Positions 1 through 13,373 of a stretch of 33,753 nucleotides of DNA are shown here, in pieces. The translations under genes were made by a program, and so were the position numbers. Position 1 is the first letter of the stretch; every line of letters begins with the position of its first letter. The notes beneath the pieces were generated by a model. It searched no databases and had not been told where the DNA came from. It saw only the letters and a list, made by a program, of their open reading frames with translations. The DNA comes from Planctomycetota bacterium (GTDB taxonomy: Bacteria > Planctomycetota > Phycisphaerae > Sedimentisphaerales > Anaerobacaceae). Where the stretch lies: assembly GCA_020344865.1 (NCBI GenBank), contig CP070830.1:2569383-2603135 (forward strand), given 5' to 3'.

Positions 1-1068
1 CGTCTGATTAAGGACATCCGCCCGCCGTACAATACGGACCTGGTCGACGACAAGACTTTTCCGTATCTGGAGATTAGGACGGGGGAGGATTTCCCGGGGG
101 TGCACATAACCCGCAAGCCTCGGTCGAAGGGGAGCCGGCTTTTCGGCCCGTTTGCGAGCGCGAAGGACCTGCGGGGCGTATTCGTGGAGCTGCAGAAGAT
201 ATTCAGGTTCCGCAGCTGCAAGCTGGAGATAAGCGAGGGGGACGAGAAGCGGCGTTTTTTCCGGCCTTGCCTTTTATACAGCATAAAGCAGTGCGTCGGG
301 CCGTGCGCGGCGAAGGTCGGCAAGGCAGATTACAAAAAAATCATCGGCGATTTGATGAAATTCCTGCGGTCGAAGCGCTCGACGGTGCTTAGGCAGCTAA
401 AAAAACAGATGGCGGAGGCATCGGAGAGGTATGAGTACGAAAAAGCGGCGATGCTACGGGACCGTATGCGGCTTATTGAGCGGCTCGACCGGCGGGGCAC
501 GCCTGATGAGGACGTTCAGCCGGAGGTATTTGCGGTTGAGCCCACCGAGGCTCTCGAAAAGCTGCAAAATCTGCTGCAAAGCCGTGAGGCGGTCAGGATT
601 ATCGAGGGTATCGACGTGGCCAACATCGGGGGCGCTGAGTCGGTGGGCTCATTGGTCAAGTTTATTGACGGAAGGCCATTCAAGAACGGCTACCGGCGAT
701 TCAAGATAAAGACCGTCAAGGGAATCGATGACTACGCGATGATAGCGGAGGTGGTCAAACGCCGTTATAAATACGCCCTTAGAGGTGAAGAACTGTGGCC
801 CGACCTCGTTTTGATAGACGGCGGCCTGGGCCATTTGCACGCCGCGGAAGCAGCTTTTAGAGAAATGAAGGCGCCTGTGCCGAAAATCGCCTCGATTGCC
901 AAGAAAGAGGAGGAAATCTTCCTGCAGGGAAGCTCTAAACCGGTGAGGCTGCCTGCCAACTCCCCTGCCCGCAAGCTGCTGCAGTACGTCCGGGATGAGG
1001 CCCACCGCTTCGCCCAGCATTATCACCACATACTGCGAAGCAAGAAGATGTTGGACAAAAAAACCTGA
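1..1068 (+). CDS. uvrC: Excinuclease ABC subunit C (UvrC), 5' end cut by the window edge
   Basis: Frame 1 is open from base 1 (RLIKDIRPPYNTDLVDDKTFPYLEI...), so the GTG at 100 in the ORF track is internal. There is a UVR-like helix (YEKAAMLRDRMRLIERL) and a UvrC endonuclease-domain signature (IEGIDVANIGG...YRRFKIK...DLVLIDGGLGHL...RDEAHRFA). The stop is at 1066-1068. Confidence 0.88.
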   Translation, partial: RLIKDIRPPYNTDLVDDKTFPYLEIRTGEDFPGVHITRKPRSKGSRLFGPFASAKDLRGVFVELQKIFRFRSCKLEISEGDEKRRFFRPCLLYSIKQCVGPCAAKVGKADYKKIIGDLMKFLRSKRSTVLRQLKKQMAEASERYEYEKAAMLRDRMRLIERLDRRGTPDEDVQPEVFAVEPTEALEKLQNLLQSREAVRIIEGIDVANIGGAESVGSLVKFIDGRPFKNGYRRFKIKTVKGIDDYAMIAEVVKRRYKYALRGEELWPDLVLIDGGLGHLHAAEAAFREMKAPVPKIASIAKKEEEIFLQGSSKPVRLPANSPARKLLQYVRDEAHRFAQHYHHILRSKKMLDKKT

Positions 1069-1105
1069 GGCGCTCCCAGCTTGGGGCATTTCAATAAAGA
1101 ACAAA

Positions 1106-2266
1106 CTAAGAATCTGCCTTTTGTCCAGGCGTGCCCGACAAAACCTCATCGAGTGCGTGTTTTGTTAGGCCGGAGAGTCGGATATCTTCGCCGAATTGAC
1201 CGGTTTCGACGTGGTGTAAGTCAAGACCCTCGGTCAATTCGGACATTGGGGGGCTTATTGAGGCGCTGCCGGCGGTACCGAGGAGCTTCGGCGTAATGTA
1301 AACGACAATTTCGTCGGCAAGGCTCTCTTTGAGAAATGAGGCGATTACGGTTGGGCCGCCCTCGACGAGCAACTGAGCGACACCGCGATTGCTCAATTCA
1401 TCGAGCAAAAAGTGTAAATTAGAGCGGCCTGTTTCCGGGCAGACAAGGACCTCAGCCCCCCTACCGGTGATTTGTTCCTGCTTTTGCGGATTATTACGGG
1501 CGGCCTCGGCACTGGTTACGACCAGCACAGGGGTATCTTTGGCAGTGGTCAGCAACTTACAGTCCAAGGGAATCCTTAGATTGCTGTCGAGAACGACTCT
1601 GGTTGGCTGTTTACCCTTGTCGGGCCGGGCCGTCAACAGCGGGTCATCGGCAAGTACCGTATTTATACCCACCAATACGGCGCCCGCCCGCCGACGCAGC
1701 TTGTGGGCATCATCTCTACTACGCTCGCCCGAAATCCATATGCGGCTGGCGGTAGTTTCAGCCCAGGCCAGCTTGCCATCGATGCTCTGTGCCCACTTTA
1801 ATATGACCCAGCATCTGCCGGTGGCGGCAAACTTGATAAAAGGGGCATTCAGCAGCTTCGCCTCGGCTTCACAGACACCGGTCTGGACCTCGATTCCAGC
1901 GGTGCGTAATTGCTCTACGCCCTGGCCGTTAGCGTGCTGCGAGGGATCAATCGTCGCTACAACGACCTTTGCCAATTTAGCGTTGATAATTGCATCGGTG
2001 CAGGGCGCGGTCTTACCCTGATGGCAGCACGGCTCGAGTGTGACGTACATAGTGGCAGCCTGCGGCTTAGCGGCGAGCTTGTTACAATCCTCAAGGGCGT
2101 TTATCTCCGCGTGCGGGCCGCCGAACTTCCTGTGCCAGCCCTTGCCGATAACCTGACCCGCCTTGACCAATACGGCGCCGACGGGAGGGTTCGGCTCAAC
2201 CGAGCCGATACCCCGCCGGGCCAGTTTCAGGGCCATCTGCATGTATTTTTCGTCCTCGGTGGCCAT
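1106..2266 (-). CDS. ribD: Bifunctional riboflavin biosynthesis deaminase/reductase RibD
   Basis: 386 aa. It has CMP/dCMP-type deaminase zinc motifs (GGPHAEINAL and TLEPCCHQGKTAPC). The RibD C-terminal reductase domain follows (VILKWAQSIDGKLA...LLVEGG). It begins 16 nt downstream of the ligA stop on the same strand. Confidence 0.92.
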   Translation of the reverse strand: MATEDEKYMQMALKLARRGIGSVEPNPPVGAVLVKAGQVIGKGWHRKFGGPHAEINALEDCNKLAAKPQAATMYVTLEPCCHQGKTAPCTDAIINAKLAKVVVATIDPSQHANGQGVEQLRTAGIEVQTGVCEAEAKLLNAPFIKFAATGRCWVILKWAQSIDGKLAWAETTASRIWISGERSRDDAHKLRRRAGAVLVGINTVLADDPLLTARPDKGKQPTRVVLDSNLRIPLDCKLLTTAKDTPVLVVTSAEAARNNPQKQEQITGRGAEVLVCPETGRSNLHFLLDELSNRGVAQLLVEGGPTVIASFLKESLADEIVVYITPKLLGTAGSASISPPMSELTEGLDLHHVETGQFGEDIRLSGLTKHALDEVLSGTPGQKADS

Positions 2267-2282
2267 TTTAGCGAGCCTTAAT

Positions 2283-4283
<2,001 letters not shown>

Positions 4284-4366
4284 TCAATTTATACGCTGTA
4301 TCGGCGCAGTTTGCAACAAGAAGATGATTGGCCTAAGGTAAAAGCGAATTAGCGCCGGAATGGCAT

Positions 4367-4395
4367 TTGACAAGGCCGTTAAACTTTTGGATAAT
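4367..4395 (+). promoter_or_regulatory. Candidate sigma70-type promoter for tRNA-Asn
   Basis: TTGACA (4367-4372), a 17-nt spacer, then GATAAT (4390-4395), about 60 nt upstream of the tRNA 5' end. This is a sequence match only. Confidence 0.4.
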
Positions 4396-4455
4396 ACTCT
4401 AAAATTTATATGAAGATGGCTCTTTGAGCCGATGTATCGATTTTTGGTGTGCTAT

Positions 4456-4528
4456 TCCCCGATAGCTCAACTGGTAGAGCGAGCGGCTGTTAACCGCTAG
4501 GTTGTAGGTTCGAGCCCTACTCGGGGAG
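4456..4528 (+). tRNA. tRNA-Asn (anticodon GTT), CCA not encoded
   Basis: The cloverleaf was folded by hand. Acceptor stem TCCCCGA/TCGGGGA; D arm GCTC-AACTGGTA-GAGC; anticodon arm AGCGG-CTGTTAA-CCGCT with GTT at positions 34-36. Variable loop AGGTT; T arm GTAGG-TTCGAGC-CCTAC; discriminator G. Total 73 nt. Confidence 0.9.
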
Positions 4529-4531
4529 TTT
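4490..4531 (+). repeat. Direct repeat copy 1: tRNA-Asn anticodon loop to 3' end plus 3 nt
   Basis: The 42 nt ttaaccgctaggttgtaggttcgagccctactcggggagttt are identical to 4808-4849. Confidence 0.95.
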
Positions 4532-4811
4532 GGTATTTTTCGTTTACATTCTCGAAAGCCAATCCACAGGACGGCATTACATCGGGCAAACCGACAATAT
4601 CGCCCGTCGCCTCGAAGAACATAATGACCCCGAGCACAAACTCAGCAAATATACCAGTAAACAAGGCGGCCCATGGAAACTGATTTACACAGAAGAACAC
4701 CCAAGCCGACCGGCGGCCGTGAAACGTGAACACTGGTTAAAGAGCAGGTCGGGACGGCGGTGGGTTGAATCTAAATTTGGTAGAGCGAGTCCGTCAATAC
4801 TGCCGGATTAA
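4530..4811 (+). CDS. Small stand-alone GIY-YIG domain nuclease family protein (UPF0213/YhbQ-like)
   Basis: 93 aa beginning VFFVYILESQSTGRHYIGQTDNIARRLEEHN, which matches the GIY...YIG...R..EH pattern. The only available start is TTG at 4530, 2 nt after the tRNA discriminator base. The last ~11 codons and the TAA stop (4809-4811) are read from tRNA-derived sequence. Confidence 0.7.
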   Translation: MVFFVYILESQSTGRHYIGQTDNIARRLEEHNDPEHKLSKYTSKQGGPWKLIYTEEHPSRPAAVKREHWLKSRSGRRWVESKFGRASPSILPD

Positions 4812-4849
4812 CCGCTAGGTTGTAGGTTCGAGCCCTACTCGGGGAGTTT
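4778..4849 (+). pseudogene. Degenerate partial tRNA-Asn copy: D-arm fragment, an 18-nt divergent segment, then a perfect 42-bp 3' half
   Basis: tggtagagcgag (4778-4789) matches 4472-4483. 4808-4849 is identical to 4490-4531. There is no matching 5' acceptor strand, and the anticodon stem cannot pair (gccgg versus ccgct), so this copy is not a functional tRNA. Confidence 0.75.
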
Positions 4850-4864
4850 CAGGGTTGGCAGGCC

Positions 4865-4897
4865 TTTTTCAGTGATTGCGGCTGAAAAAAGATTTTT
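4865..4897 (+). terminator. Weak AT-rich hairpin plus T-run downstream of the tRNA/GIY-YIG unit
   Basis: TTTTTCAG (4865-4872) pairs with CTGAAAAA (4882-4889) across a 9-nt loop, followed by agattttt. The stem is all weak pairs, so confidence is low. Confidence 0.25.
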
Positions 4898-5001
4898 GTA
4901 TAATCGCGGAATTGAAAGACTTGATTGCACAGCTGGCCTTTAATATGGGAATGGCAGTTTATGTGGAATTAACTCACAGATAAATTCAAGGAAATATTAT
5001 T

Positions 5002-6276
5002 ATGAAGAGAGTATTCTTCGTTTTATTTGTGGGAGTAATTTTGCCTACCAACTGTTTTGCTGTTGAAAATTCTCTTAAGTTACCAAAAATTGATCGAAGA
5101 CCGGATCCAATAAACTGGGTGCGAGGTGAGCTAAATTCCCTGCCCAAATATAATCATGAGTCGAACAATGCTTTCCAGGTGGACTTACGATGTTATAACT
5201 TATCCAGACTCGATTTGAGTAATTCTATCGACGACCTACAGTATGCAACCTTTGATGATAGGACAATCTGGCCAGCACCTGAGCACATGCCCAAGGAGTT
5301 TGATTGGAAGCGGGTTATGGAAATGGGTAAGAATCCTGGACTTGGTATCCGCAAACTTCATGAGAAGGGTATTACCGGGCGAGGTGTGGGTATCGCAATA
5401 CTCGATCAGCCATTACTGGTTGATCATGTGGAATATACCGAACGCTTACGTTTGTACGAGGAAATTAATATACAAAGTGGTAAGAAATCACAAATGCATG
5501 GGCCTGGTGTGGCTTCGATTGCTGTTGGTAGGACTTTGGGAGTTGCCCCCGAGGCAGACCTTTATTATATTGCTAAGTGGAACGGAGATTACAAAGGTAG
5601 AAATTTCACCTGGAACTTTACATATCTTGCTCAGGGGGTCCACAGAATCTTAGAGATAAATGAACAGCTTCCAAAGGATAGGAAAATTCGGGTAATCTCA
5701 ATGTCCGTAGGCTGGGGACCATCACAAAAAGGTTACAAGGAAATAACTGAGGCAGCCCAAAAAGCAAAGGAAGCAGGCATGCTTGTGATATGTTCGTCCA
5801 CTGACGAGATACATGGATTCCGTTTTCATGGTCTTGGCCGTCCTCCCTTAGCTAACCCAGATGATTTCAACTCTTATAAGCCTGGTTCCTGGTGGGCTAA
5901 AATGTTTTATGATGGCAATCCGTTTCATAGCGGTATGAATAGTTTATTAATCCCAATGGATTCACGAACAACAGCTAGCCACACAGGTACTAACGAATAT
6001 GTTTTTTATCGTCATGGAGGATGGAGCTGGTCGATTCCATATATTGCAGGTGTTTATGCTCTTGCGGCACAGGTCGAACCCAACATTACGCCTGAAAGAT
6101 TTTGGGCTTTGGCTATGAAGACAGGGCGAACTATTGAACTGGAAAACAAAGAGAGAAAAATCGCGTTTGGCCCAATACTAGATTCCGCCAAAATTATTGA
6201 AAAACTCAAAAAAGGTGAGCTTTCCAATAGTAAAGCTATAAAGGCGGAGTTAGAAAAGTATAACATTGACTTGTGA
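5002..6276 (+). CDS. Secreted subtilisin-like serine peptidase (S8 family)
   Basis: 424 aa with an N-terminal signal peptide (MKRVFFVLFVGVILPTNCFAVEN). The catalytic triad motifs appear in D-H-S order: GVGIAILDQ, HGPGVASIAVG, and GGWSWSIPYIAGVYAL (compare GTSMAAPHVAG). GC content is clearly lower than the neighbours. Confidence 0.8.
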   Translation: MKRVFFVLFVGVILPTNCFAVENSLKLPKIDRRPDPINWVRGELNSLPKYNHESNNAFQVDLRCYNLSRLDLSNSIDDLQYATFDDRTIWPAPEHMPKEFDWKRVMEMGKNPGLGIRKLHEKGITGRGVGIAILDQPLLVDHVEYTERLRLYEEINIQSGKKSQMHGPGVASIAVGRTLGVAPEADLYYIAKWNGDYKGRNFTWNFTYLAQGVHRILEINEQLPKDRKIRVISMSVGWGPSQKGYKEITEAAQKAKEAGMLVICSSTDEIHGFRFHGLGRPPLANPDDFNSYKPGSWWAKMFYDGNPFHSGMNSLLIPMDSRTTASHTGTNEYVFYRHGGWSWSIPYIAGVYALAAQVEPNITPERFWALAMKTGRTIELENKERKIAFGPILDSAKIIEKLKKGELSNSKAIKAELEKYNIDL

Positions 6277-6441
6277 TCATTATACGAGATGTAAGTCTAC
6301 AGGTAATCCAATTGTCTTTACAATGACAATCGCCCCAGGACCTTTGTTACTCTAGCTCTGGAAATACCAATATATCTGGCTCGTTCGGATTTAGGGAGAA
6401 TATCGCCGACTGGGACAAACCCTGCTCGGCTGAAATAGGCT

Positions 6442-7692
6442 CTATTGCCAGAACTTAGGTACCGTCTCCCCCGTTTTCTGTGTCCATCTCCGGCTGTCTT
6501 TCTCGAACTCGACAGCCGCCTCGTGTATTTTGATGACTTTTACGCCATGTATCGTCTGGCCTTCCTTCAATAACCGGCTGTCAATTATCACCGATGGATT
6601 GTCCTCCGCATAGACTATTGCGCCAACCACTCCGTGCGTGACCTCTCGCTTTGTTGTCACTACGTTTTCTTCAAGCCGTGCTTTCAAACTCGTCCTCTGC
6701 AAGTCCCACTGCTCGAATTCAACCGATTCTTCCATCTCAATCTTATCCCCACGGTACTGAATCGACGCATTCTGCCTGTTTTGTAATACTTCATCGTCGC
6801 CGGGATACTTAAGGAAAATATAAACCGGCTTCATTGTCTCGAATAACGCTTCCTGAAGCCACTGCTCTTCGACATCGCCCCACGTCGGGTCGAAAGGAAC
6901 CCAGCCGTAATTGCGCAGATAAACCTCCGTCCACGCATGTTTGGGTAATGTCTCACTCACAATAACAGCATAGCCGGTAACCACTCTCGCCGGTATCCCA
7001 TTTGCCCTGCACATCGCCACAAACAACGCCGAATACTCCGAACAATCGCCTTCACCATGCTGTGCTGCATAGGACGCTCCCTGCTCCTTGTCCTGGACGC
7101 AATAGTCCAGACTATTAATCACATAATTGTAGATGCTCCGAACCGTCTCTATGTCACTTTGACCTTTTATCTCTCTCGCAGCTTTCTGTATCAGGTAGGC
7201 ATTGCATTCTATCCCGCCTTCTTCATGCAGAAAATCATCACCGCCGTCACCTGGGAAAAATCTGTCCACGTACCTTTTTTGAGCCATCGACAAATCATAT
7301 CTCAGCAGTTCAGCCCTTACCTGTATTTCCACCTTGAACCGTCTTTTCGGCTCTTCGAAAATAAACTCCGCGTATTCGTTTCCGCTTTTGCTGGTAAATC
7401 TCCTCAACGGCCTCGGAAAACACTTCACCCAACGAACCTCCTGCCTGTCCGGTATTGTCTTCGGAAGAGCGGCGGTTAGCCTTATTTCCGATGTATCACC
7501 CGGCACGAAAAACTCATAGAACAAACTCCATTCCACTACATTATTCAACGGCGCAAAAGTCTCAGGAAGCGAGGGAACTTCGACCGGATTATTATCGGAA
7601 TCCATCCCTTCCGGCTCACCTTCGCCTCCTGTATCAGTCGCAAACCACAGCCCGATTACCAACACCAACAACAACAGAATTTTGCGCTTCAT
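6442..7692 (-). CDS. Secreted transglutaminase-like cysteine peptidase superfamily protein
   Basis: The transglutaminase core motifs are GEGDCSEYSALFVAMCRANGIPARVVTGY, then KHAWTEVYL, then GWVPFDPT (Cys-His-Asp). The preferred start is ATG at 7692 (MKRKILLLLVLVIGLWF signal peptide, with AGGA 5 nt upstream). The ORF track's longer start is at 7710. Confidence 0.8.
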   Translation of the reverse strand: MKRKILLLLVLVIGLWFATDTGGEGEPEGMDSDNNPVEVPSLPETFAPLNNVVEWSLFYEFFVPGDTSEIRLTAALPKTIPDRQEVRWVKCFPRPLRRFTSKSGNEYAEFIFEEPKRRFKVEIQVRAELLRYDLSMAQKRYVDRFFPGDGGDDFLHEEGGIECNAYLIQKAAREIKGQSDIETVRSIYNYVINSLDYCVQDKEQGASYAAQHGEGDCSEYSALFVAMCRANGIPARVVTGYAVIVSETLPKHAWTEVYLRNYGWVPFDPTWGDVEEQWLQEALFETMKPVYIFLKYPGDDEVLQNRQNASIQYRGDKIEMEESVEFEQWDLQRTSLKARLEENVVTTKREVTHGVVGAIVYAEDNPSVIIDSRLLKEGQTIHGVKVIKIHEAAVEFEKDSRRWTQKTGETVPKFWQ

Positions 7693-7839
7693 GTAATTCC
7701 TCGCACCCATTTAACTCCGATATATCGGCAATTTTAACCCCACCCTTAACCTTCCTGCACGTCAATAACCGACCTCCTGCAAAAGCAGCCGAAATCTGAT
7801 TACAAAATCCAGCAGGTAAGTTTCCAAGGGCAAAGCCCG

Positions 7840-7857
7840 GAGCCCTACTCGGGGAGT
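7840..7857 (+). repeat. Third, 18-bp copy of the tRNA-Asn 3' end (T-loop/acceptor strand)
   Basis: gagccctactcggggagt is identical to 4512-4529 and 4830-4847. It lies in the intergenic region between the transglutaminase-like gene and the kinase gene. Confidence 0.8.
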
Positions 7858-7882
7858 AGTTCGACGCGGCCACCCTGGCCTT

Positions 7883-7915
7883 GGCCAGTACAAGGTTCAG
7901 ATGGCCGTTTTTTTT
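7883..7915 (+). terminator. Terminator-like hairpin with a T8 tract downstream of the 18-bp tRNA fragment
   Basis: GGCCA (7883-7887) pairs with TGGCC (7902-7906) across a 14-nt loop. An alternative outer stem is CGGCCA/TGGCCG (7867-7872 with 7902-7907). Eight T residues follow at 7908-7915. No plus-strand CDS ends here. Confidence 0.35.
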
Positions 7916-8141
7916 GCCGATATTATGAAAAATTTTCGTAATGGTGGAAAACAGGCCAACTAAATTATAAGTTATTGGTTTTGTAGAGGCCGGTTTTGTG
8001 TAAAATACAGTTTGATATATTAATAGCGGCCACATCGCCAAAAGACAAAATTAAGGGAACAGATGGCGGCTTTGGCGCATCTATAGAGGATTAGACCTAC
8101 ATTTGAGAAGACACCCGAATTATTAGGTTTTTATAAGTAAA

Positions 8142-9020
8142 ATGGCTAAGGACATACTCAACGTCGGCGGGTTTACCATCCAGAGGAGGATTGGCGTCGG
8201 CGCTCGCAGCACAATCTATCTGGCAACGGACGATACAGACCACAACGATATCGCCCTAAAACGGGTTATCTTCGAGAAACCGGAGGATTCGAGGATATTC
8301 GAGCAGGTGGAGACCGAATATAAAGTTGGCAGCCGGATAGACAACCCCTATGTCCGCAAGTGCCATAAACTAAAGAAAATACGCAGTATGCTCAAGGTCA
8401 AGGAGATGCTGCTTTCTATGGAGTATTTCGACGGCAAGAACCTCGAAGACGGTCCCGCCCTCAGCCTGCTGGATGTGCTGCTGGTATTCAGGATGGTGGC
8501 GGGCGGTCTCAATGCCATGCATCAGCACGGGTACGTTCACTGCGACATAAAGCCCAATAATATTCTTCTGAGCACGGCCGGGGCTATTAAAATAATCGAC
8601 CTCGGCCAGAGCTGCAGAATAGGGACGACAAAGCGCCGGATTCAGGGGACGCCGGACTACATCGCACCGGAACAGGTCAGGCGCAAACCCATGGGCCCAA
8701 AAACCGATATCTTCAACCTTGGCGCGACAATGTACTGGGCCCTGACGGGAAAGCACGTCCCCACGTTGATACCCAAAAAGGACAGTCTGGGCCTGCCGCT
8801 GCCACGAAAGCGCCGGGCACCCCACGAGATAAAAAAACAGTTGCCAATCGGAATCTCAAAGTTTGTAATGGACTGCACAGAAGACGAACCTGCGGACCGG
8901 CCGCCCGATATGATGACGGTCATATCGAGGCTGGACCTGCTGATACACAGCATATTAGGTGGCAAGGTAAGAACAAATAACAATGCCGCAAACAATAGTC
9001 GAGTTGCTGAACGAAGGTAA
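8142..9020 (+). CDS. Hanks-type Ser/Thr protein kinase, kinase domain only
   Basis: 292 aa. It has the Gly-rich loop IGVGARSTIY, the conserved Lys in IALK, the catalytic loop HCDIKPNNILL, DLG in place of DFG, and the activation/P+1 motif GTPDYIAPE. There is no TM segment or extra sensor domain. Confidence 0.9.
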   Translation: MAKDILNVGGFTIQRRIGVGARSTIYLATDDTDHNDIALKRVIFEKPEDSRIFEQVETEYKVGSRIDNPYVRKCHKLKKIRSMLKVKEMLLSMEYFDGKNLEDGPALSLLDVLLVFRMVAGGLNAMHQHGYVHCDIKPNNILLSTAGAIKIIDLGQSCRIGTTKRRIQGTPDYIAPEQVRRKPMGPKTDIFNLGATMYWALTGKHVPTLIPKKDSLGLPLPRKRRAPHEIKKQLPIGISKFVMDCTEDEPADRPPDMMTVISRLDLLIHSILGGKVRTNNNAANNSRVAERR

Positions 9021-9831
9021 AGAAGCGAACATCGCTGATAAATTTCGGCGCGGCAACGCGATTTACCTGCCCAGCGGCGTCAACGTGATTGCAACCGGTG
9101 ACATACACGGCCACAGGCGAAACTTCGACAGAATCGTCGCCTATGCGGATTTAGAAAACAATCCCGAAAGACACGTCGTCCTGCAGGAAATCATACACGG
9201 AGGAACGGAGGACGCAGAAGGAGGGTGCCTGTCCTATAAACTACTGTTCGATGTTGTGCGTTACAAACTGAGCTTTGCCGACCGCGTCCACATTATTATG
9301 GGAAATCACGATATCTCATTTATCAACAACAGCGACGTGATGAGAGGCGGCAAGGAAATGAACCGCTCGATGCGTCTTGCCCTCGAGCGGGAATTCGAAC
9401 AAGACGGCAGTGACATCACACTGGCTATAAGCGATTGCTTACGTGCACAACCGCTGGCGGTCAAGTGCGAGAACAAGATATGGCTGAGCCATTCGCTGCC
9501 GGGCGACCGGCTGGCGGATAAATTTGACGGGCGGATTCTGGACAGGCCGCTGGAAGACGACGACATGGTCAAACCGGGCTCGGCTTATCTTCTGACGTGG
9601 GGGAGGAAACACAGTCAGAAAACGCTCGACAAAATGGCAGAGCTGCTTGGTGTAGATATTTTCATTCTGGGCCATCAGGCACAGCCGGAAGGATGGAGCC
9701 GGGCCGGCGAGAATCTTATCATTATCGCCTCCGACCACAACCACGGCTGTCTGTTACCCGTCGACGCGGGGAAATCCTACACTGTAGAGACACTGGCCGA
9801 GTCGATAGTGTCGCTGGCGTCCATATCCTGA
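8983..9831 (+). CDS. Calcineurin-like metallophosphoesterase (PPP/ApaH-like phosphatase)
   Basis: 282 aa with motifs GDIHGH (nt 9097-9114), GNHD (IIMGNHDISF) and a later GH (ILGHQAQP). Its ATG at 8983 overlaps the kinase 3' end by 38 nt. Confidence 0.8.
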   Translation: MPQTIVELLNEGKEANIADKFRRGNAIYLPSGVNVIATGDIHGHRRNFDRIVAYADLENNPERHVVLQEIIHGGTEDAEGGCLSYKLLFDVVRYKLSFADRVHIIMGNHDISFINNSDVMRGGKEMNRSMRLALEREFEQDGSDITLAISDCLRAQPLAVKCENKIWLSHSLPGDRLADKFDGRILDRPLEDDDMVKPGSAYLLTWGRKHSQKTLDKMAELLGVDIFILGHQAQPEGWSRAGENLIIIASDHNHGCLLPVDAGKSYTVETLAESIVSLASIS

Positions 9832-9838
9832 AGTATAG

Positions 9839-9867
9839 TTGACAATCCAGCAAGTAAAGCAATAATC
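9839..9867 (+). promoter_or_regulatory. Candidate promoter immediately upstream of the glycosyltransferase ATG
   Basis: TTGACA (9839-9844), a 17-nt spacer, then ATAATC (9862-9867). The ATG is at 9875, and the 7 intervening nt contain no Shine-Dalgarno sequence. Confidence 0.3.
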
Positions 9868-9874
9868 AATCGGC

Positions 9875-11089
9875 ATGGACTGGTATTACTATATAGCCGG
9901 CGTGCTGATTCTGTCGCAAGTGCTCATTTTGCTTCATGCGTACAGAAACTATCACTACGCTCTGAGCAAATACAGTAAGACCCGTTCAAAGTATCGTCCG
10001 CGAACCGTGCTCATAGTACCCTGCAAGGGAAAGGACCTGGCCTTCGAGCACAATGTCACTTCCTTTTTCAATCAGGACTATGAAAATTATCTGCTCTGGT
10101 TTGTGGTTGCGGAGGAGTCGGACCCGGCCCATGAGGAACTGTGCAAATTGAAAGACCGTCTGAGCGGCGGCTCAAAGGCTCAAGATGTGCAGGTGTTGGT
10201 GGCAGGTCACGGGCAAACGTGCAGTCAGAAAATTCACAACCTGCAGTACTGCTACGAAAGGTTGAGCGATGACATCGAGGTCATGGCCTTCGCCGATTCA
10301 GACGCCTGCGTCCGAAGAGACTGGCTGAGTCACATTGTGCATCCGCTTCGAAAATCCAAGAACGGGGCGGCCAGCGGTTATCGCTGGTTCGTAACAAGAA
10401 AGAACAATCCGGCCAGCCTGGCGCTGTCGGCAATGAATGCCAAGGTTGCGCAGCTGCTTGGTAACAGCCCATTCAACCAGGCGTGGGGCGGCTCTATGGC
10501 CATTCGAGTTGACGTCTTTCGGCAGTTAGGGCTCGAGGAGATTTGGCCGAAAGCCTTGAGCGATGATTTGTCGCTGAGCTACGCTGTCAAAAAAGCAAGG
10601 AAAAAAGTGGTTTTTGTGCCGGCCTGTCTCGTGGCGTCATACGAATCGACCGATTGGGACAAACTTTTTGAGTTCGGCCGGCGACAGTTTTTAATAACCC
10701 GCGTGAGTAACCCGGGAACATGGTGGTTCGGACTGCTGAGCAGTTTGTATTCGGTACTGGGTCTGTGGGGGGGCGCTGCCGCCACATACTACGCTGCAAT
10801 GAGCGGAGGCAAAAACGTGTTTGTATTTGCCGCGGTACCGGCAGCATTTCTGGCAGGTCAGATGTGGCGAGCGGTACTGAGACAAAGAATGATTAGTAAA
10901 CTGCTGAAAGAGGATTTGCCGAAGATGAAGGTCGCTATGGCCGCTGATATACTATTGTTCTGGGTATGGTCGATACTTCTGCTGGTTATCATTATCTCTT
11001 CGGCCTTCGGAAGAACGGTGACGTGGCGAGGAATACGCTATAAGCTGCTCGGGCCAACCAAAACAATCGTGCTCGGCCCTGTAGCGTAA
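9875..11089 (+). CDS. Membrane-bound GT-A glycosyltransferase (GT2/GT21, ceramide-glucosyltransferase-like)
   Basis: 404 aa with an N-terminal TM segment. Motifs: VLIVPCKGKD, the DxD-like FADSDA, and GGSMAIR. Several C-terminal TM segments are present (WWFGLLSSLYSVLGLWGG..., ILLFWVWSILLLVIIISS). Confidence 0.72.
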   Translation: MDWYYYIAGVLILSQVLILLHAYRNYHYALSKYSKTRSKYRPRTVLIVPCKGKDLAFEHNVTSFFNQDYENYLLWFVVAEESDPAHEELCKLKDRLSGGSKAQDVQVLVAGHGQTCSQKIHNLQYCYERLSDDIEVMAFADSDACVRRDWLSHIVHPLRKSKNGAASGYRWFVTRKNNPASLALSAMNAKVAQLLGNSPFNQAWGGSMAIRVDVFRQLGLEEIWPKALSDDLSLSYAVKKARKKVVFVPACLVASYESTDWDKLFEFGRRQFLITRVSNPGTWWFGLLSSLYSVLGLWGGAAATYYAAMSGGKNVFVFAAVPAAFLAGQMWRAVLRQRMISKLLKEDLPKMKVAMAADILLFWVWSILLLVIIISSAFGRTVTWRGIRYKLLGPTKTIVLGPVA

Positions 11090-11156
11090 GGTTTACGGCC
11101 ATCAAAAGAACTGAATAATTATTGTTCGCAGACCAGTCAGTAAGAGAGAACTGAAA

Positions 11157-13373
11157 ATGAGATACAGAACTATTTTTCTTAGTGCCGTTGTATTATTACT
11201 GTTGGTTAATCCGACGAATTGTTTTTCATCCAACCAGGAGGATACACAGGCCTTTATCAAAGGTGCAGAAACCATTGCATGTGCCGAGGGCTGGTTCGAC
11301 CGTCCGATGAGATGGGCGCAACTGACGCTCGTGGAAAACGACCCCGGGCGATACGACCCGCAATTCTGGCTGGATTATTTCAAGCGGACGCATTCGGATG
11401 CCGCTTGCCTCAGCGCAGGTGGGTGCGTGGCCTATTATCCTACCGAGATTGAGCTGCACCATCGCAGCGCGTGGATGGGGGATACGGACCCATTCGGCGA
11501 GCTGGTGGCGGGGTGTCGGAGGATGGGAATGGTGGTAATTGCACGCACGGACCCCCACGCCGTACATCAGGATGTTTACGAGGCCCATCCGGACTGGGTA
11601 GCCGTCGACGCCGAGGGGCGCAAGCGGCGTCACTGGTCGTCGCCGGATATGTGGGTGACATGCGCATTAGGGCCGTACAACTTCGAGTTCATGACGGAAG
11701 TGCACAAGGAGATCATGTCACGTTATATGGTGGACGGTATCTTCAGCAACCGCTGGTCGGGGTCGGGGATGTGCTACTGTGAGCACTGTCAGCGCAATTT
11801 CAAGGAGTACTGCGGTCTGGAGCTTCCACGCACGACGAATCCGCAGGAACCGGAGCTTCGCAACTATATCGTATGGCGACAGAAGAGACTTTTCGAACTC
11901 TGGGCGCTCTGGGATAGAGAAATTCGCAAGATAAATCCGAAGGCCCGCTATATTCCAAACTCAGGCGGCGGAGCTATGACGTCTCTTGATATGAAAAAAA
12001 TCGGTCAGTTAGCCGACATACTTTTTTCCGACAAACAGGCGAGGCGGGGAGTCGCACCACCCTGGGTAAACGGTAAAAGAGGCAAGGAATTCCGCGCGAC
12101 ATTGGGGCAAAAGCCCATAGGCGGTATTTTCAGTATGGGTCTGGAGGAGCCGTACCGGTGGAAAGATTCCGTGCAAGGTGAGGCGGAGATTCGCATCTAC
12201 GTCGCCGATGGAATCGCAAATGGTCTGCGGCCGTGGTTCACGAAGTTTTCCGGTTATCTTTATGACAAACGATGGCTCAGTGTCGTAGAGGATATTTACA
12301 ACTGGCACTGGCGGGCCGAACGGTATCTGCGCAACGAAGCGCCTCTGGCGCGAGCAGCGATGGTCTATTCACAGCAGACGGCGGCCTTCTACGGCGGCAA
12401 GGATGCCCGAGAAAAAGTAGAAAACCACCTGCTCGGAATGTATCACGCGCTCATCGAGGCCCGCATCCCATTCGAGATGGTTCACGATGGACTGTTGGAC
12501 AGCGAACACGTCGACCAATTCAAAACGTTGATTTTGCCCAACATCGCAGCTCTTTCGGACGAGCAGTGCCAACAGATTCGCGATTATGTCAAGCGCGGAG
12601 GCAGTATCGTGGCTACATACGAGACTTCTCTCTATGACCAATGGGGCGTTCGGCGGGAGGACTTCGGGCTGGCAGACCTCTTCGGGGTTGAGTTTAAGGG
12701 TAAAATCGAAGGCCCGATGAAGAACTCTTATCTGCGCATTGAGAAGGACCCCGTAACCGGCAAACACCACCCGGTGCTGGCTGGCCTGGAGGATGCCGGA
12801 AGAATAGTAAACGGCATCTACCGACTGCACGTTGACGCACGGGCGAAAACGCCCAATCCGCCGCTTACGCTGATACCATCGTACCCCGACCTGCCTATGG
12901 AAAAAGTCTATCCGCGCGAGCCTAAAACGGACGTGCCGGAAGTTTACCTACACGAACTCGGCAAGAGCCGAATCGTTTATTTTCCGTGGGACATAGACAG
13001 GAGCTTTTGGGAGATTATGAACGTCGACCACGGCAGGCTGCTGCGCAACGCCGTAGAGTGGGCCACAAACGAGGAAAAACCGGTGACGGTCAGCGGCCCG
13101 GGAGTCCTTGATGTCACTGTATGGCGGCAGAAAAACTCTATGACCGTGCACTTAGTCAATCTGACCAATCCGATGATGATGAAAGGCCCATACAGGGAAC
13201 TGATACCTGTCGGTGAGCAAACGGTGCGGCTGCGGCTACCAGAGGGCAAAAAGGCCAAGTGCATCCAACTGCTGCGAGCCGGACGGATACCCGAAGTAAC
13301 AGAGACAGAGGGACACTTAACCGTAACAGTACCGTCCATACTGGACCACGAAGTCGTTACCATTGACCTGTAG
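11157..13373 (+). CDS. Secreted putative glycoside hydrolase (GHL6/GH42-like with a beta-galactosidase-trimerisation-type domain)
   Basis: 738 aa with a signal peptide (MRYRTIFLSAVVLLLLVNPTNCFS). The N-terminal region resembles hypothetical glycosyl hydrolase family GHL6 (WLDYFKRTHSDAACLSAGGCVAYYPTE). The central segment LILPNIAALSDEQCQQIRDYVKRGGSIVATYETS looks like the GH42 middle domain. The family call is from memory of motifs only. Confidence 0.6.
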   Translation: MRYRTIFLSAVVLLLLVNPTNCFSSNQEDTQAFIKGAETIACAEGWFDRPMRWAQLTLVENDPGRYDPQFWLDYFKRTHSDAACLSAGGCVAYYPTEIELHHRSAWMGDTDPFGELVAGCRRMGMVVIARTDPHAVHQDVYEAHPDWVAVDAEGRKRRHWSSPDMWVTCALGPYNFEFMTEVHKEIMSRYMVDGIFSNRWSGSGMCYCEHCQRNFKEYCGLELPRTTNPQEPELRNYIVWRQKRLFELWALWDREIRKINPKARYIPNSGGGAMTSLDMKKIGQLADILFSDKQARRGVAPPWVNGKRGKEFRATLGQKPIGGIFSMGLEEPYRWKDSVQGEAEIRIYVADGIANGLRPWFTKFSGYLYDKRWLSVVEDIYNWHWRAERYLRNEAPLARAAMVYSQQTAAFYGGKDAREKVENHLLGMYHALIEARIPFEMVHDGLLDSEHVDQFKTLILPNIAALSDEQCQQIRDYVKRGGSIVATYETSLYDQWGVRREDFGLADLFGVEFKGKIEGPMKNSYLRIEKDPVTGKHHPVLAGLEDAGRIVNGIYRLHVDARAKTPNPPLTLIPSYPDLPMEKVYPREPKTDVPEVYLHELGKSRIVYFPWDIDRSFWEIMNVDHGRLLRNAVEWATNEEKPVTVSGPGVLDVTVWRQKNSMTVHLVNLTNPMMMKGPYRELIPVGEQTVRLRLPEGKKAKCIQLLRAGRIPEVTETEGHLTVTVPSILDHEVVTIDL

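Follow-up and report, generated by a model that had tools for sequence, protein, structure and literature searches.

How does a gene for a small GIY-YIG nuclease come to be lodged between an intact tRNA-Asn gene and a second, incomplete copy of the same tRNA, so tightly that its stop codon is read out of that copy? The question is raised by a 33,753-nt stretch of the genome of a Planctomycetota bacterium (contig CP070830.1, positions 2,569,383 to 2,603,135; below, the window means this whole stretch). The evidence presented here tips, if modestly, toward the interpretation that positions 4490-4849 are one copy of a widespread selfish, homing-like cassette of ~0.32 kb that resides in tRNA genes, mostly those for tRNA-Asn. 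The cassette consists of a GIY-YIG gene encoding the catalytic domain only, a GC-rich TCC...GGA hairpin at the tRNA-proximal junction, and a duplicated part of the host tRNA. This interpretation is built on the anatomy of the locus, its recurrence, the conservation of the hairpin, purifying selection on the protein, polymorphism for presence and absence, and the occurrence of multiple nuclease lineages at one site.

The only tRNA in the window, called by ARAGORN and matched over its full length by Rfam RF00005 (68.8 bits, 4456-4528), is tRNA-Asn(GTT). The original prediction, made from the sequence alone, described a perfect 42-bp direct repeat that begins within this tRNA and a 12-nt repeat of its D arm; a repeat search recovered both with exactly the coordinates given in Table 1. 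A 19-nt part of the longer repeat occurs just twice in the 33.7-kb window, once in each repeat copy, where 0.02 occurrences are expected by chance. The insert between the repeats is 276 bp long, and the GIY-YIG open reading frame (ORF) is the only one in it. As predicted, this ORF has 93 codons, starts at TTG and takes its last codons and its stop from tRNA-derived sequence: residues 84-93 are encoded there, and the TAA (4809-4811) is T36-A37-A38 of the anticodon loop of the second copy. The start codon had been placed 2 nt after the tRNA and in fact lies on the base directly after it (4530).

The first tRNA copy is as intact as was predicted. The description of the second as decayed needs revision, since that copy is patterned: the 6 nt CGGCTG (tRNA positions 29-34) have been exchanged for the 18-nt sequence TCCGTCAATACTGCCGGA, which stands between the D-arm remnant and TTAACC. 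Neither ARAGORN nor Rfam calls the second copy a tRNA. It is disabled because the hairpin takes the place of one strand of the anticodon stem, and the host loses nothing because the duplication keeps the other copy intact. A chance repeat and a decayed tandem tRNA were rejected as explanations, given that the hairpin-patterned copy is found again in dozens of loci. A group I intron or other known RNA was also rejected; an Rfam E-value scan of 4300-5000 returned nothing besides the tRNA, which is uninterrupted.

The same design is found in many other bacteria. A GTDB scan with one genome per species gave 493 relatives, the best 80 of which were examined; most of the relative loci come from metagenome-assembled genomes (MAGs), whose taxon labels and contig ends are imperfect. 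These 80 belong to at least eight phyla, including Planctomycetota, Nitrospirota, Desulfobacterota, Acidobacteriota, Chloroflexota, Synergistota, Verrucomicrobiota/Lentisphaerota, Patescibacteria and others. A tRNA-Asn(GTT) gene lies within 700 nt upstream on the same strand in 46 of the 80, with a median gap of ~27 nt and a gap of 0-1 nt in nine. Some flanking tRNA is present in 61 of the 80, compared to a background tRNA density of 0.02/kb at more than 1.5 kb away in those loci. The ORF ends in most loci with the TAA of the anticodon-loop TTAA, and as much as 45 nt of the sequence beyond copies the local tRNA.

All five metagenomic homologues found first share the arrangement of tRNA, ORF and partial tRNA copy. 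L001 and L005 are tRNA-Asn versions. L004 has an identical tRNA-Asn, an ORF 68% identical, a disabled copy and then the beginning of a second ORF. L002 is a tRNA-Pro(GGG) version with an ORF ending in a copy of the T arm, and an integrase gene adjoins the locus. Versions of the cassette are also present at Pro, Gln, Leu and Trp tRNAs, so that the question left by the original prediction, whether other tRNA genes carry the ORF, can be answered in the affirmative for tRNA-Asn in many phyla and for other tRNAs. The relatives do not present a conserved tandem tRNA-Asn pair with an unrelated spacer and no mobility signature, nor is the nuclease gene a single-copy, syntenically fixed gene that never accompanies tRNAs elsewhere. 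The homologues on viral contigs are more distant and serve as a negative control: a scan of 23 (L087-L109) revealed no tRNA close to any of them. No homologue was found in 72,556 plasmids. Linkage to tRNA is therefore a trait of a chromosomal subfamily, and a phage or plasmid vector was rejected on these grounds.

The most distinctive part of the cassette is the hairpin. A GC-rich hairpin is almost always present at the junction, in forms such as TCCGCC-NNN-GGCGGA, TCCCGAA-NNNN-TTCGGGA, TCCCGAC...GTCGGGA and TCCGGCAG-GA-CTGCCGGA. Junctions of type 1 have the order D-arm remnant, hairpin, TTAACC, remaining tRNA 3' half; those of type 2 have the order GGCTGTTAA, hairpin, tRNA from the variable loop or T loop on. 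Both types have the hairpin where a tRNA has one strand of its anticodon stem. Hairpins are also found inside D arms and T arms, and a second one of the same kind lies in the T arm of the disabled copy in L010, L013, L018, L030 and L037. In an anchored test that took every X|TTAA[CT]C near an ORF end with X other than the native CTG, a perfect stem of at least 6 bp abutted the TTAA in 40 of 50 junctions, whereas shuffled sequences averaged 0.2 such junctions and never exceeded 2. Among 31 distinct TCC...GGA hairpins, a set for which perfect stems were selected, the outer three pairs are invariant and the inner positions alternate between G-C, C-G and A-T. The hairpin of the window is a weakened version of the family form with just 4 bp anchored at TTAA; its perfect version, TCCGGCAGGACTGCCGGA, is found in L007, and L133 has the same degenerate version as the window.

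The hairpin appears to be maintained as a nucleic acid. Its length varies from 15 to 18 nt, hence the upstream remnant is translated in differing frames, and an early stop of the ORF in L035 and L047 leaves the hairpin untranslated yet retained. The conserved entity is thus a DNA or RNA object and not a peptide. Conservation for the coding of a C-terminal tail was rejected for the same reasons, and the tail (residues 84-93 in the window) is predicted to be disordered in the AF2 model. A genome-wide REP-like hairpin was rejected as well: TCC...GGA hairpins are concentrated at cassettes, with a density of 2.7/kb nearby versus 0.5/kb elsewhere, and the matches outside lie mostly near other tRNA-Asn copies. 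The hairpin could serve in immunity of the spare copy, as a block to deletion between the repeats, as a binding site or as an RNA end. A single exact TCCGCC-N5-GGCGGA palindrome, of which shuffled sequences expect none, occurs elsewhere in the window at 2415-2431, within the coding region of ligA; it is probably coincidental to coding, though it matches the cassette hairpin in type.

Cassettes also occur in multiples, in mirror image and in decay. There are three tandem units in L059 and two in L014, L020 and L076, and two diverged copies are present in L013, L016 and L022. In mirror forms the disabled copy lies upstream and the intact tRNA downstream, and the ORF in some cases runs on into the latter; such forms are seen in L040 and L070 (Asn), L074 (Gln), L084 (Leu), and L055 and L063 (Pro). 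The entire anticodon arm of the upstream copy in L055 is replaced by TCCCTTAGGGA and the tRNA promoter is apparently duplicated; sequence upstream of the tRNA is duplicated in L070 also. Solo disabled 5' copies stand upstream of intact tRNAs in L010, L032 and L033, and orphan units begin with a 5'-truncated tRNA in L052 and L081. Decay is evident in L008, which has a nonsense codon, in the truncated second copies of L017, L019 and L053, and in degenerate ORFs in L149, L213, L217 and L241.

Two side observations concern the structure of these loci. In L063, tRNA-Pro fragments with TCCCTTAGGGA in place of the anticodon arm (4875-5000 and 5380-5470) flank the ORF and the intact tRNA, as if this pair had split a disabled tRNA; the upstream fragment has a 48-nt structured insertion in its D loop. 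Two short-read contigs break within a unit: L131 (1-40) ends at the start of the repeated tRNA half, GGCTGTTAAC, and L004 (497-596) ends inside the second ORF copy. Such breaks are expected if near-identical tandem units confuse assembly, and cassette copy numbers in MAGs are probably underestimated.

The protein belongs to a branch of the GIY-YIG family whose bacterial members stand alone. The predicted GIY-YIG assignment is borne out by Pfam PF01541 (E=4.2e-14, 53 bits against a cut-off of 22.6), with residues 3-76 aligned to positions 2-74 of the 78-position profile; no other domain was detected in the 93 residues. A profile of the protein and five homologues searched against the PDB matched the UPF0213 proteins BH0048 (1zg2, 6e-15) and EF2693 (1ywl, 7e-14), and the nuclease domain of eukaryotic SLX1 at 2.6e-8. 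The AF2 model (pLDDT 80) has the fold beta-beta-alpha-alpha-beta-alpha-alpha over residues 3-83. Its top Foldseek matches are 1zg2 and Slx1, at 2.2-2.5 A rmsd over 72-76 columns, with TMq values of ~0.62 for Slx1, 0.49 for I-TevI and 0.43 for UvrC. By sequence profile and predicted structure, the nuclease is thus placed in the Slx1/UPF0213 branch, and not with UvrC or I-TevI. The motif residues Y6, Y17, G19, R26/R27, H31, N32, E67 and K71 are 95-100% conserved among 85 family ORFs. Ratios of dN/dS are 0.05-0.2 across many family pairs, and within the L020 array the ratio is 0.09 at a dS of 0.42, a pattern in the coding sequences that indicates purifying selection on the cassette protein.

The wider family is large. 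A full-library search found 4319 related protein clusters (50% identity) at E<=1e-3 and 326 at E<=1e-10. Two predicted proteins, P0007 (214 aa) and P0009 (205 aa), each contain two GIY-YIG stretches; they may be read-through fusions over the pseudo-tRNA between tandem units, or artefacts of gene calling. Membership in a defence system was rejected, as PADLOC models gave just weak partial matches to PDC-S14 (E ~1e-4, residues 5-35, the N-terminal motif). Homologues of UvrC are encoded nearby in the window (100-1068), in L132 (4571-5833) and in L133 (7190-8509). They are short (420-447 aa in the relatives) and show UVR and RNase H-like endonuclease domains; the N-terminal GIY-YIG is weak, faint or not reported.

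How the nuclease gene is expressed is suggested by what surrounds it. The sole candidate promoter for the tRNA-ORF unit lies ~60 nt upstream of the tRNA (Table 1), and a sequence scan found no promoter-like site between tRNA and ORF and no terminator-like site in 4250-5050. The window ORF is most likely transcribed from the tRNA promoter. A leader hairpin between promoter and tRNA, represented at the same position by GGCTCTGGGAGCC in L004 and by GGCTGTCGAAGCC in L132 and L133, is kept with differing loops in L004, L132, L133 and L138; perhaps it acts in the leader or in processing. Nine relatives likewise have their start codon, mostly TTG, 0-1 nt past the tRNA, and with the start at this distance, tRNA 3' processing would free an mRNA that begins at the start codon, so that expression would be leaderless. 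At the other end, a hairpin in the native flank together with AGATTTTTG may be the end of the transcription unit; the terminator scan gave it no score. Flanks resembling that of the window from 4850 onward (TTTCAGGGCGGCAGGCC...) also lie 3' of tRNA-Asn 3' halves in L214 and L238.

The relatives vary in this respect. A terminator-like hairpin lies between tRNA and ORF in L001, L012 and L067, and at L055, the one tRNA-Pro locus examined for expression, the ORF stands behind a duplicated tRNA promoter and a disabled tRNA leader. Use of the tRNA promoter appears from these arrangements to recur, and read-through from an intact tRNA is not universal. The original prediction that expression rides on the tRNA transcript is accordingly consistent with the promoter and the lack of a terminator before the ORF in the window, and does not extend to all relatives.

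Table 1. Coordinates of the features of the tRNA-Asn locus in the window
Feature	Position	Strand	Basis or remark
Sigma-70-type promoter, TTGACA-17 nt-GATAAT; sole candidate for the tRNA-ORF unit	4367..4395	+	11/12 consensus matches
Leader hairpin GGCTC-TTT-GAGCC, between promoter and tRNA	4418..4430	+	
Intact tRNA-Asn, anticodon GTT, without encoded CCA	4455..4529	+	ARAGORN; Rfam RF00005
Direct repeat, copy 1: tRNA positions 35-76 plus 2-3 nt of flank, including the two leading bases of the TTG start	4490..4531	+	
GIY-YIG nuclease ORF, 93 aa, TTG start, catalytic domain only, Slx1/UPF0213 type	4530..4811	+	
D-arm remnant TGGTAGAGCGAG, within the 3' end of the ORF, codons for G-R-A-S	4778..4789	+	Exact copy of 4472-4483; equivalent place in relatives
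Junction hairpin TCCGTCAATACTGCCGGA, 18-nt imperfect palindrome in place of tRNA positions 29-34	4790..4807	+	
Direct repeat, copy 2: disabled tRNA-Asn 3' half	4808..4849	+	Exact repeat
Native flank 3' of the tRNA locus, hairpin TTTTTCAG-N9-CTGAAAAA then AGATTTTTG	4850..4897	+	

A nuclease gene that shares what is probably one transcription unit with a pseudo-tRNA invites an explanation at the level of RNA. The GIY-YIG protein might act on tRNA or other RNA, for example as an anticodon-loop nuclease or a tRNA quality-control factor, with the co-transcribed, hairpin-substituted pseudo-tRNA as a regulator, an antitoxin or a decoy that cannot be cleaved. Co-expression would then be the reason for the linkage to the tRNA gene, and the patchy distribution would reflect selfishness of the toxin-antitoxin kind. 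Arrays of repeat and gene do recall type III toxin-antitoxin loci, the disabled copy retains tRNA-like parts and is always without its anticodon stem, and the hairpin is conserved irrespective of translation. Moreover, prokaryotic Slx1-like domains are fused to, or in operons with, a TrmH-like SPOUT tRNA methyltransferase and COG4123 methyltransferases, and a role in RNA metabolism has been suggested for them (Dunin-Horkawicz et al. 2006; PMC1564403). Nonetheless, we regard an RNA-level module as unlikely. A decoy needs neither adjacency to the cognate tRNA gene nor exact, lineage-specific identity to it over as much as 45 nt, terminators included. The mirror forms L040, L074 and L084 hold just short 5' tRNA fragments, which are poor tRNA mimics. 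The pseudo-tRNA of the window folds no better than shuffled sequences (z = +0.59), on which ground a stably folded tRNA-like RNA was rejected; those of relatives fold slightly better than shuffles. Finally, GIY-YIG enzymes characterised to date are, to our knowledge, DNases. COG4123 is nowadays classed as a tRNA m6A37 methyltransferase, and its association would be a second, independent tie of this nuclease branch to tRNA.

A selfish cassette should be present at some tRNA genes and absent from others, and this is what the tRNA-Asn loci reveal. By its LigA the window falls within Planctomycetota, near MAGs of the Sedimentisphaerales type. The ligA-tRNA-Asn locus is filled in the window, in L133/L134 (LigA 86% identical in amino acids, cassette 96% identical in nucleotides) and in L208 (cassette 86.5% identical in amino acids). 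L132 and L138 have ligA and tRNA-Asn without a GIY-YIG gene after the tRNA, and the ligA genes of L208 and L132, one from a filled and one from an unfilled locus, are 99.5% identical over 1647 nt. The DNA 3' of the tRNA differs in the window, L133, L132, L138 and L208, which points to instability of the entire site. A clean comparison comes from one trio: L210 contains tRNA, ORF, TCCGGCAGAAATGCCGGA, tRNA 3' half and flank, and in L218 and L240 the tRNA is followed directly by that flank, which is common to the three at 87% identity over 250 nt. Even in this trio, the only one that shares a flank, the exact insertion point is masked by the direct repeat. Empty sites, for which the original prediction had proposed to look, therefore exist.

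A metagenome scan with the exact 39-nt 3' half of the window tRNA-Asn gave 120 contigs: 74 with an intact tRNA and no GIY-YIG gene, 17 filled, 14 too short and 15 without an intact tRNA, several of which hold the partial copies described below. The cassette thus occupies 17 of the 91 resolvable loci (~19%), where empty means no GIY-YIG gene within 800 nt and may include loci with an island between tRNA and cassette. The GIY-YIG proteins of the 17 filled loci fall into seven clusters less than 60% identical, in addition to degenerate copies.

Side observations bear on the same neighbourhood. A subtilase-family (Peptidase_S8) gene that follows the cassette in the window (5002-6276) is absent from L133 (compare 3376-3480), where a transglutaminase-like gene, 94% identical in nucleotides to window 6442-7710, lies directly 3' of the cassette. 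The tRNA-Asn locus is a hot spot for insertions and deletions, as the downstream DNA differs in every relative examined. One GIY-YIG lineage (L153, L154, L163, L207, L222, L248) begins ~95 nt after tRNA-Asn, with a conserved two-hairpin spacer between (CTGTGAACCACGTGGGGTTCACAGCC...). L138, which is without a GIY-YIG gene, has a similar spacer after its tRNA; this spacer may mark where a cassette was lost, or be a small element in its own right.

Insertions at tRNA genes are familiar from tyrosine integrases, and it could be that islands or prophages with an attB running from the anticodon loop of tRNA-Asn to its 3' end move a non-autonomous cassette in trans. The 42-nt repeat would then be attL/attR and the nuclease cargo, for instance for stabilisation or competition. 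Integrases reportedly use the anticodon loop, T loop and 3' end as sublocations of tRNA genes, as an analysis by Williams in 2002 is said to have found, and the repeat boundaries match such sublocations. In the host lineage, contigs L139, L143/L150, L152, L168, L169, L214 and L244 have partial tRNA-Asn copies from (G)CTG|TTAACC behind unrelated, island-like and often AT-rich DNA; in sequence these look like the attR/attL ends of classical integrative elements at the same sublocation. The integrase gene beside L002 points in the same direction, as does the resemblance of arrays of promoterless ORF and hairpin site to integron cassettes. Yet no integrase or transposase domain was detected in the scanned window ORFs of at least 150 aa (positions 100-13373), so that none lies within 8 kb of the cassette, and an integrase is absent from the 0.3-kb unit anywhere. 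The junction loop reads GGA|TTAA and not CTG|TTAA, so the overlap identity on which a tyrosine recombinase depends is lost, and the hairpin occurs inside D arms and T arms too. The cargo is always the same nuclease family, which makes the nuclease itself the likely driver. Mobilisation in trans is on these grounds quite unlikely. The layout of an IS200/IS605-type element, with an HUH (Y1) transposase and a subterminal hairpin at each end, is not seen either: the GIY-YIG ORF is the only one, and the hairpin is at one junction only.

The remaining alternative is that nothing moves. A host nuclease captured by an old tandem tRNA duplication could be domesticated and essentially immobile, with a host role at a tRNA locus that is heavily transcribed and prone to breaks, such as the resolution of R-loops or cruciforms; its patchiness would be due to loss between the repeats. 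Precise loss between the 42-nt repeats would indeed mimic an empty site. Slx1 relatives are repair nucleases, purifying selection is strong, the protein clades broadly track host phyla, and the synteny of ligA, tRNA-Asn and the GIY-YIG gene extends over the window, L133, L208 and the more distant L007. Such a history does not account for seven lineages less than 60% identical at tRNA-Asn genes with an identical 3' half, of which ~80% of loci are without a cassette. Nor does it accommodate the recurrence of the design at Pro, Gln, Leu and Trp tRNAs, in mirror image and as orphan units, or the tandem arrays of diverged copies and the many pseudogenised ones. A host function explains neither the junction hairpin nor an ORF that reads into a tRNA copy, and we consider domestication very unlikely.

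A selfish homing-like element is the most economical explanation, because the cassette combines a precise tie to tRNA, patchiness, several lineages, arrays and decay, has no recombinase of its own, and encodes a nuclease as its only enzyme. The following cycle can be envisaged. Transcription would begin at the tRNA promoter (4367-4395), and tRNA 3' processing would free an mRNA starting at, or one base before, the TTG start codon. The nuclease would nick or cut the DNA of the tRNA gene, presumably at the anticodon arm. This arm is the favoured target because every disabled copy lacks it, junctions centre on the TTAA of the loop, and in tRNA-Asn the palindrome GTTAAC is formed from the loop together with the first stem pair; when single-stranded or extruded, the arm could give the branched or hairpin structures that Slx1-type enzymes prefer. 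Kinship to Slx1 suggests that branched or hairpin DNA is recognised and not a long sequence, which might account for the ability of so small a protein, of 93 aa, to locate a tRNA gene. Host recombinational repair, through ~35-45 nt of tRNA homology on each side, would then copy the cassette into empty tRNA genes in a homing-like gene conversion, and the same breaks would drive expansion of arrays, solo disabled copies and eventual decay. The first duplication fits an origin in situ, for example by widely staggered nicks or template switching.

Two histories had been proposed in the original prediction. The first, in which a minimal GIY-YIG element targeted the tRNA gene and carried a replacement 3' half, gains support from the recurrence, the empty sites, the divergent lineages, and the arrays and their decay. 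The second, a tandem tRNA pair with the nuclease gene written over the 5' part of one copy, also describes the anatomy, namely a duplicated tRNA region with the ORF over its 5' part; the first is favoured. The term homing-endonuclease-like needs refinement, since the nuclease is of the Slx1/UPF0213 branch and is without the DNA-binding domain found in classical GIY-YIG homing endonucleases.

Several points weigh against a selfish homing-like element. The repeated tRNA part is always local sequence, at times with the local terminator (L065, L067), and local repeats are no less compatible with duplication in situ than with an element that imports a tRNA half of its own. Beside the cassette the intact tRNA, which is the presumed target, survives in a form identical to an empty allele, and the classical rule that insertion destroys the target is not obviously obeyed. 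Every characterised GIY-YIG homing endonuclease has a DNA-binding domain, and none is present in the 93-aa protein. The literature searched contains no cleavage activity or target for the cassette protein or any bacterial UPF0213 member. The terminator-like hairpins noted above in three relatives mean that riding on the tRNA transcript is not universal. With respect to the polymorphism, the flanks on one side differ in most comparisons of filled and empty loci; a part of it may stem from general instability of tRNA loci, and integrase-type partial tRNA-Asn copies are present in the lineage. Synonymous divergence between the window and L133 is 0.096 for the GIY-YIG gene, 0.333 for ligA and 0.148 for the transglutaminase gene beyond. 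The low value of the nuclease gene relative to ligA was considered as a sign of recent horizontal transfer and is ambiguous, as the transglutaminase gene is also low; it may reflect ordinary recombination. The GIY-YIG phylogeny broadly tracks host phyla, so that a large share of the inheritance is possibly vertical.

A bolder extension of the homing-like interpretation can be put forward tentatively, as a proposition more doubtful than probable: the cassette may represent a new class of autonomous mobile element which, at ~0.3 kb, would be among the smallest known. The nuclease and the hairpin would together recognise structure and not a long sequence, the structures being tRNA-gene stem-loops in extruded, single-stranded or R-loop DNA. 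The nuclease would cut the anticodon or T loop, insertion would produce a target duplication of 40-100 nt that spares the tRNA, and the tRNA promoter and tRNA processing would give a leaderless mRNA. If this is true, the preference for tRNA-Asn would be explained by the anticodon-arm palindrome GTTAAC, and the UPF0213 family would gain a first function.

The broader implications depend on the homing-like reading of the cassette. If correct, it would provide a concrete, testable role for stand-alone bacterial Slx1-like/UPF0213 GIY-YIG proteins. It would also describe a new lifestyle for a selfish gene, in which a unit of ~320 bp without its own DNA-binding domain, promoter or ribosome-binding site parks in an essential, highly expressed tRNA gene, duplicates part of it and disables the spare with a hairpin. 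The long-known use of tRNA genes as insertion sites would gain a nuclease-driven route, and many an unexplained pseudo-tRNA fragment, or break in the assembly of an environmental genome at tRNA-Asn, may be accounted for. The protein itself may be a compact nuclease whose specificity rests on DNA structure. Whatever the mechanism, the association with tRNA is real and strong, crosses phyla, is exact at the junction and is marked by a covarying hairpin.

Parts of this design are known from other systems. Integrase att duplications likewise have a repeat that begins in the anticodon loop (or T loop) and ends shortly beyond the 3' end of the tRNA, leave the tRNA intact, and use a tRNA-Asn site in this lineage. 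Unlike integrase insertions, the cassette has no integrase, an insert of only 276 bp, a hairpin junction that removes the loop CTG, a D-arm remnant upstream, and an ORF that reads into the repeat. Integron cassettes, too, are tiny units that lack a promoter and carry a hairpin-forming site at the end, the imperfect palindrome attC, and they stand in arrays behind a single strong promoter. The present arrays differ in having the same nuclease in each unit, an anchor in a tRNA gene, and a tRNA fragment per unit. No IntI integrase was found in the window ORFs scanned, and the related loci were not searched for IntI. The likeness to att duplications and to integron cassettes is one of layout only.

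Group I introns in the anticodon loops of bacterial tRNAs, some with GIY-YIG homing endonucleases (PMC3984707), share the anticodon-loop position, the partnership of GIY-YIG with a tRNA gene, and the sparing of tRNA function. In contrast to those introns, the cassette has no ribozyme by Rfam, and the tRNA is duplicated and not interrupted, its function being kept by duplication instead of splicing. As a protein, the nuclease resembles stand-alone UPF0213 proteins (1zg2 BH0048, 1ywl EF2693, the E. coli YhbQ type) in size, fold and conserved residues. Reports on UPF0213 in the literature searched mention no tRNA linkage, target duplication or junction hairpin, the features that define this large cassette subfamily. 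The 2006 survey of Slx1-like gene neighbourhoods in prokaryotes did not remark on tRNA genes (PMC1564403). No description of tRNA-linked UPF0213/GIY-YIG cassettes was found in the full-text literature searched, and papers beyond that search may exist.

Among known systems, the nearest to the cassette are the free-standing GIY-YIG homing endonuclease genes of T4-like phages, the Seg family, of which SegB lies in the tRNA gene cluster of phage T4 (PMC2330249). Like the cassette, Seg genes encode a GIY-YIG protein without an intron or intein, lie among or beside tRNA genes, and are patchy among relatives. In both, spread is expected through break-induced repair that copies the gene and its flanks, in a cycle of invasion and decay. 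The Seg and I-TevI enzymes are ~200-250 aa long with a C-terminal DNA-binding domain, whereas the cassette protein consists of 93 aa and the catalytic domain alone, without the tethered, sequence-tolerant DNA-binding domain of I-TevI, I-BmoI and Seg. Unlike Seg genes, the cassette resides in bacterial chromosomes of many phyla and encodes a nuclease of the Slx1/UPF0213 branch; its target tRNA is duplicated around it, with one copy disabled by a hairpin, its ORF is fused to that copy, and it forms tandem arrays.

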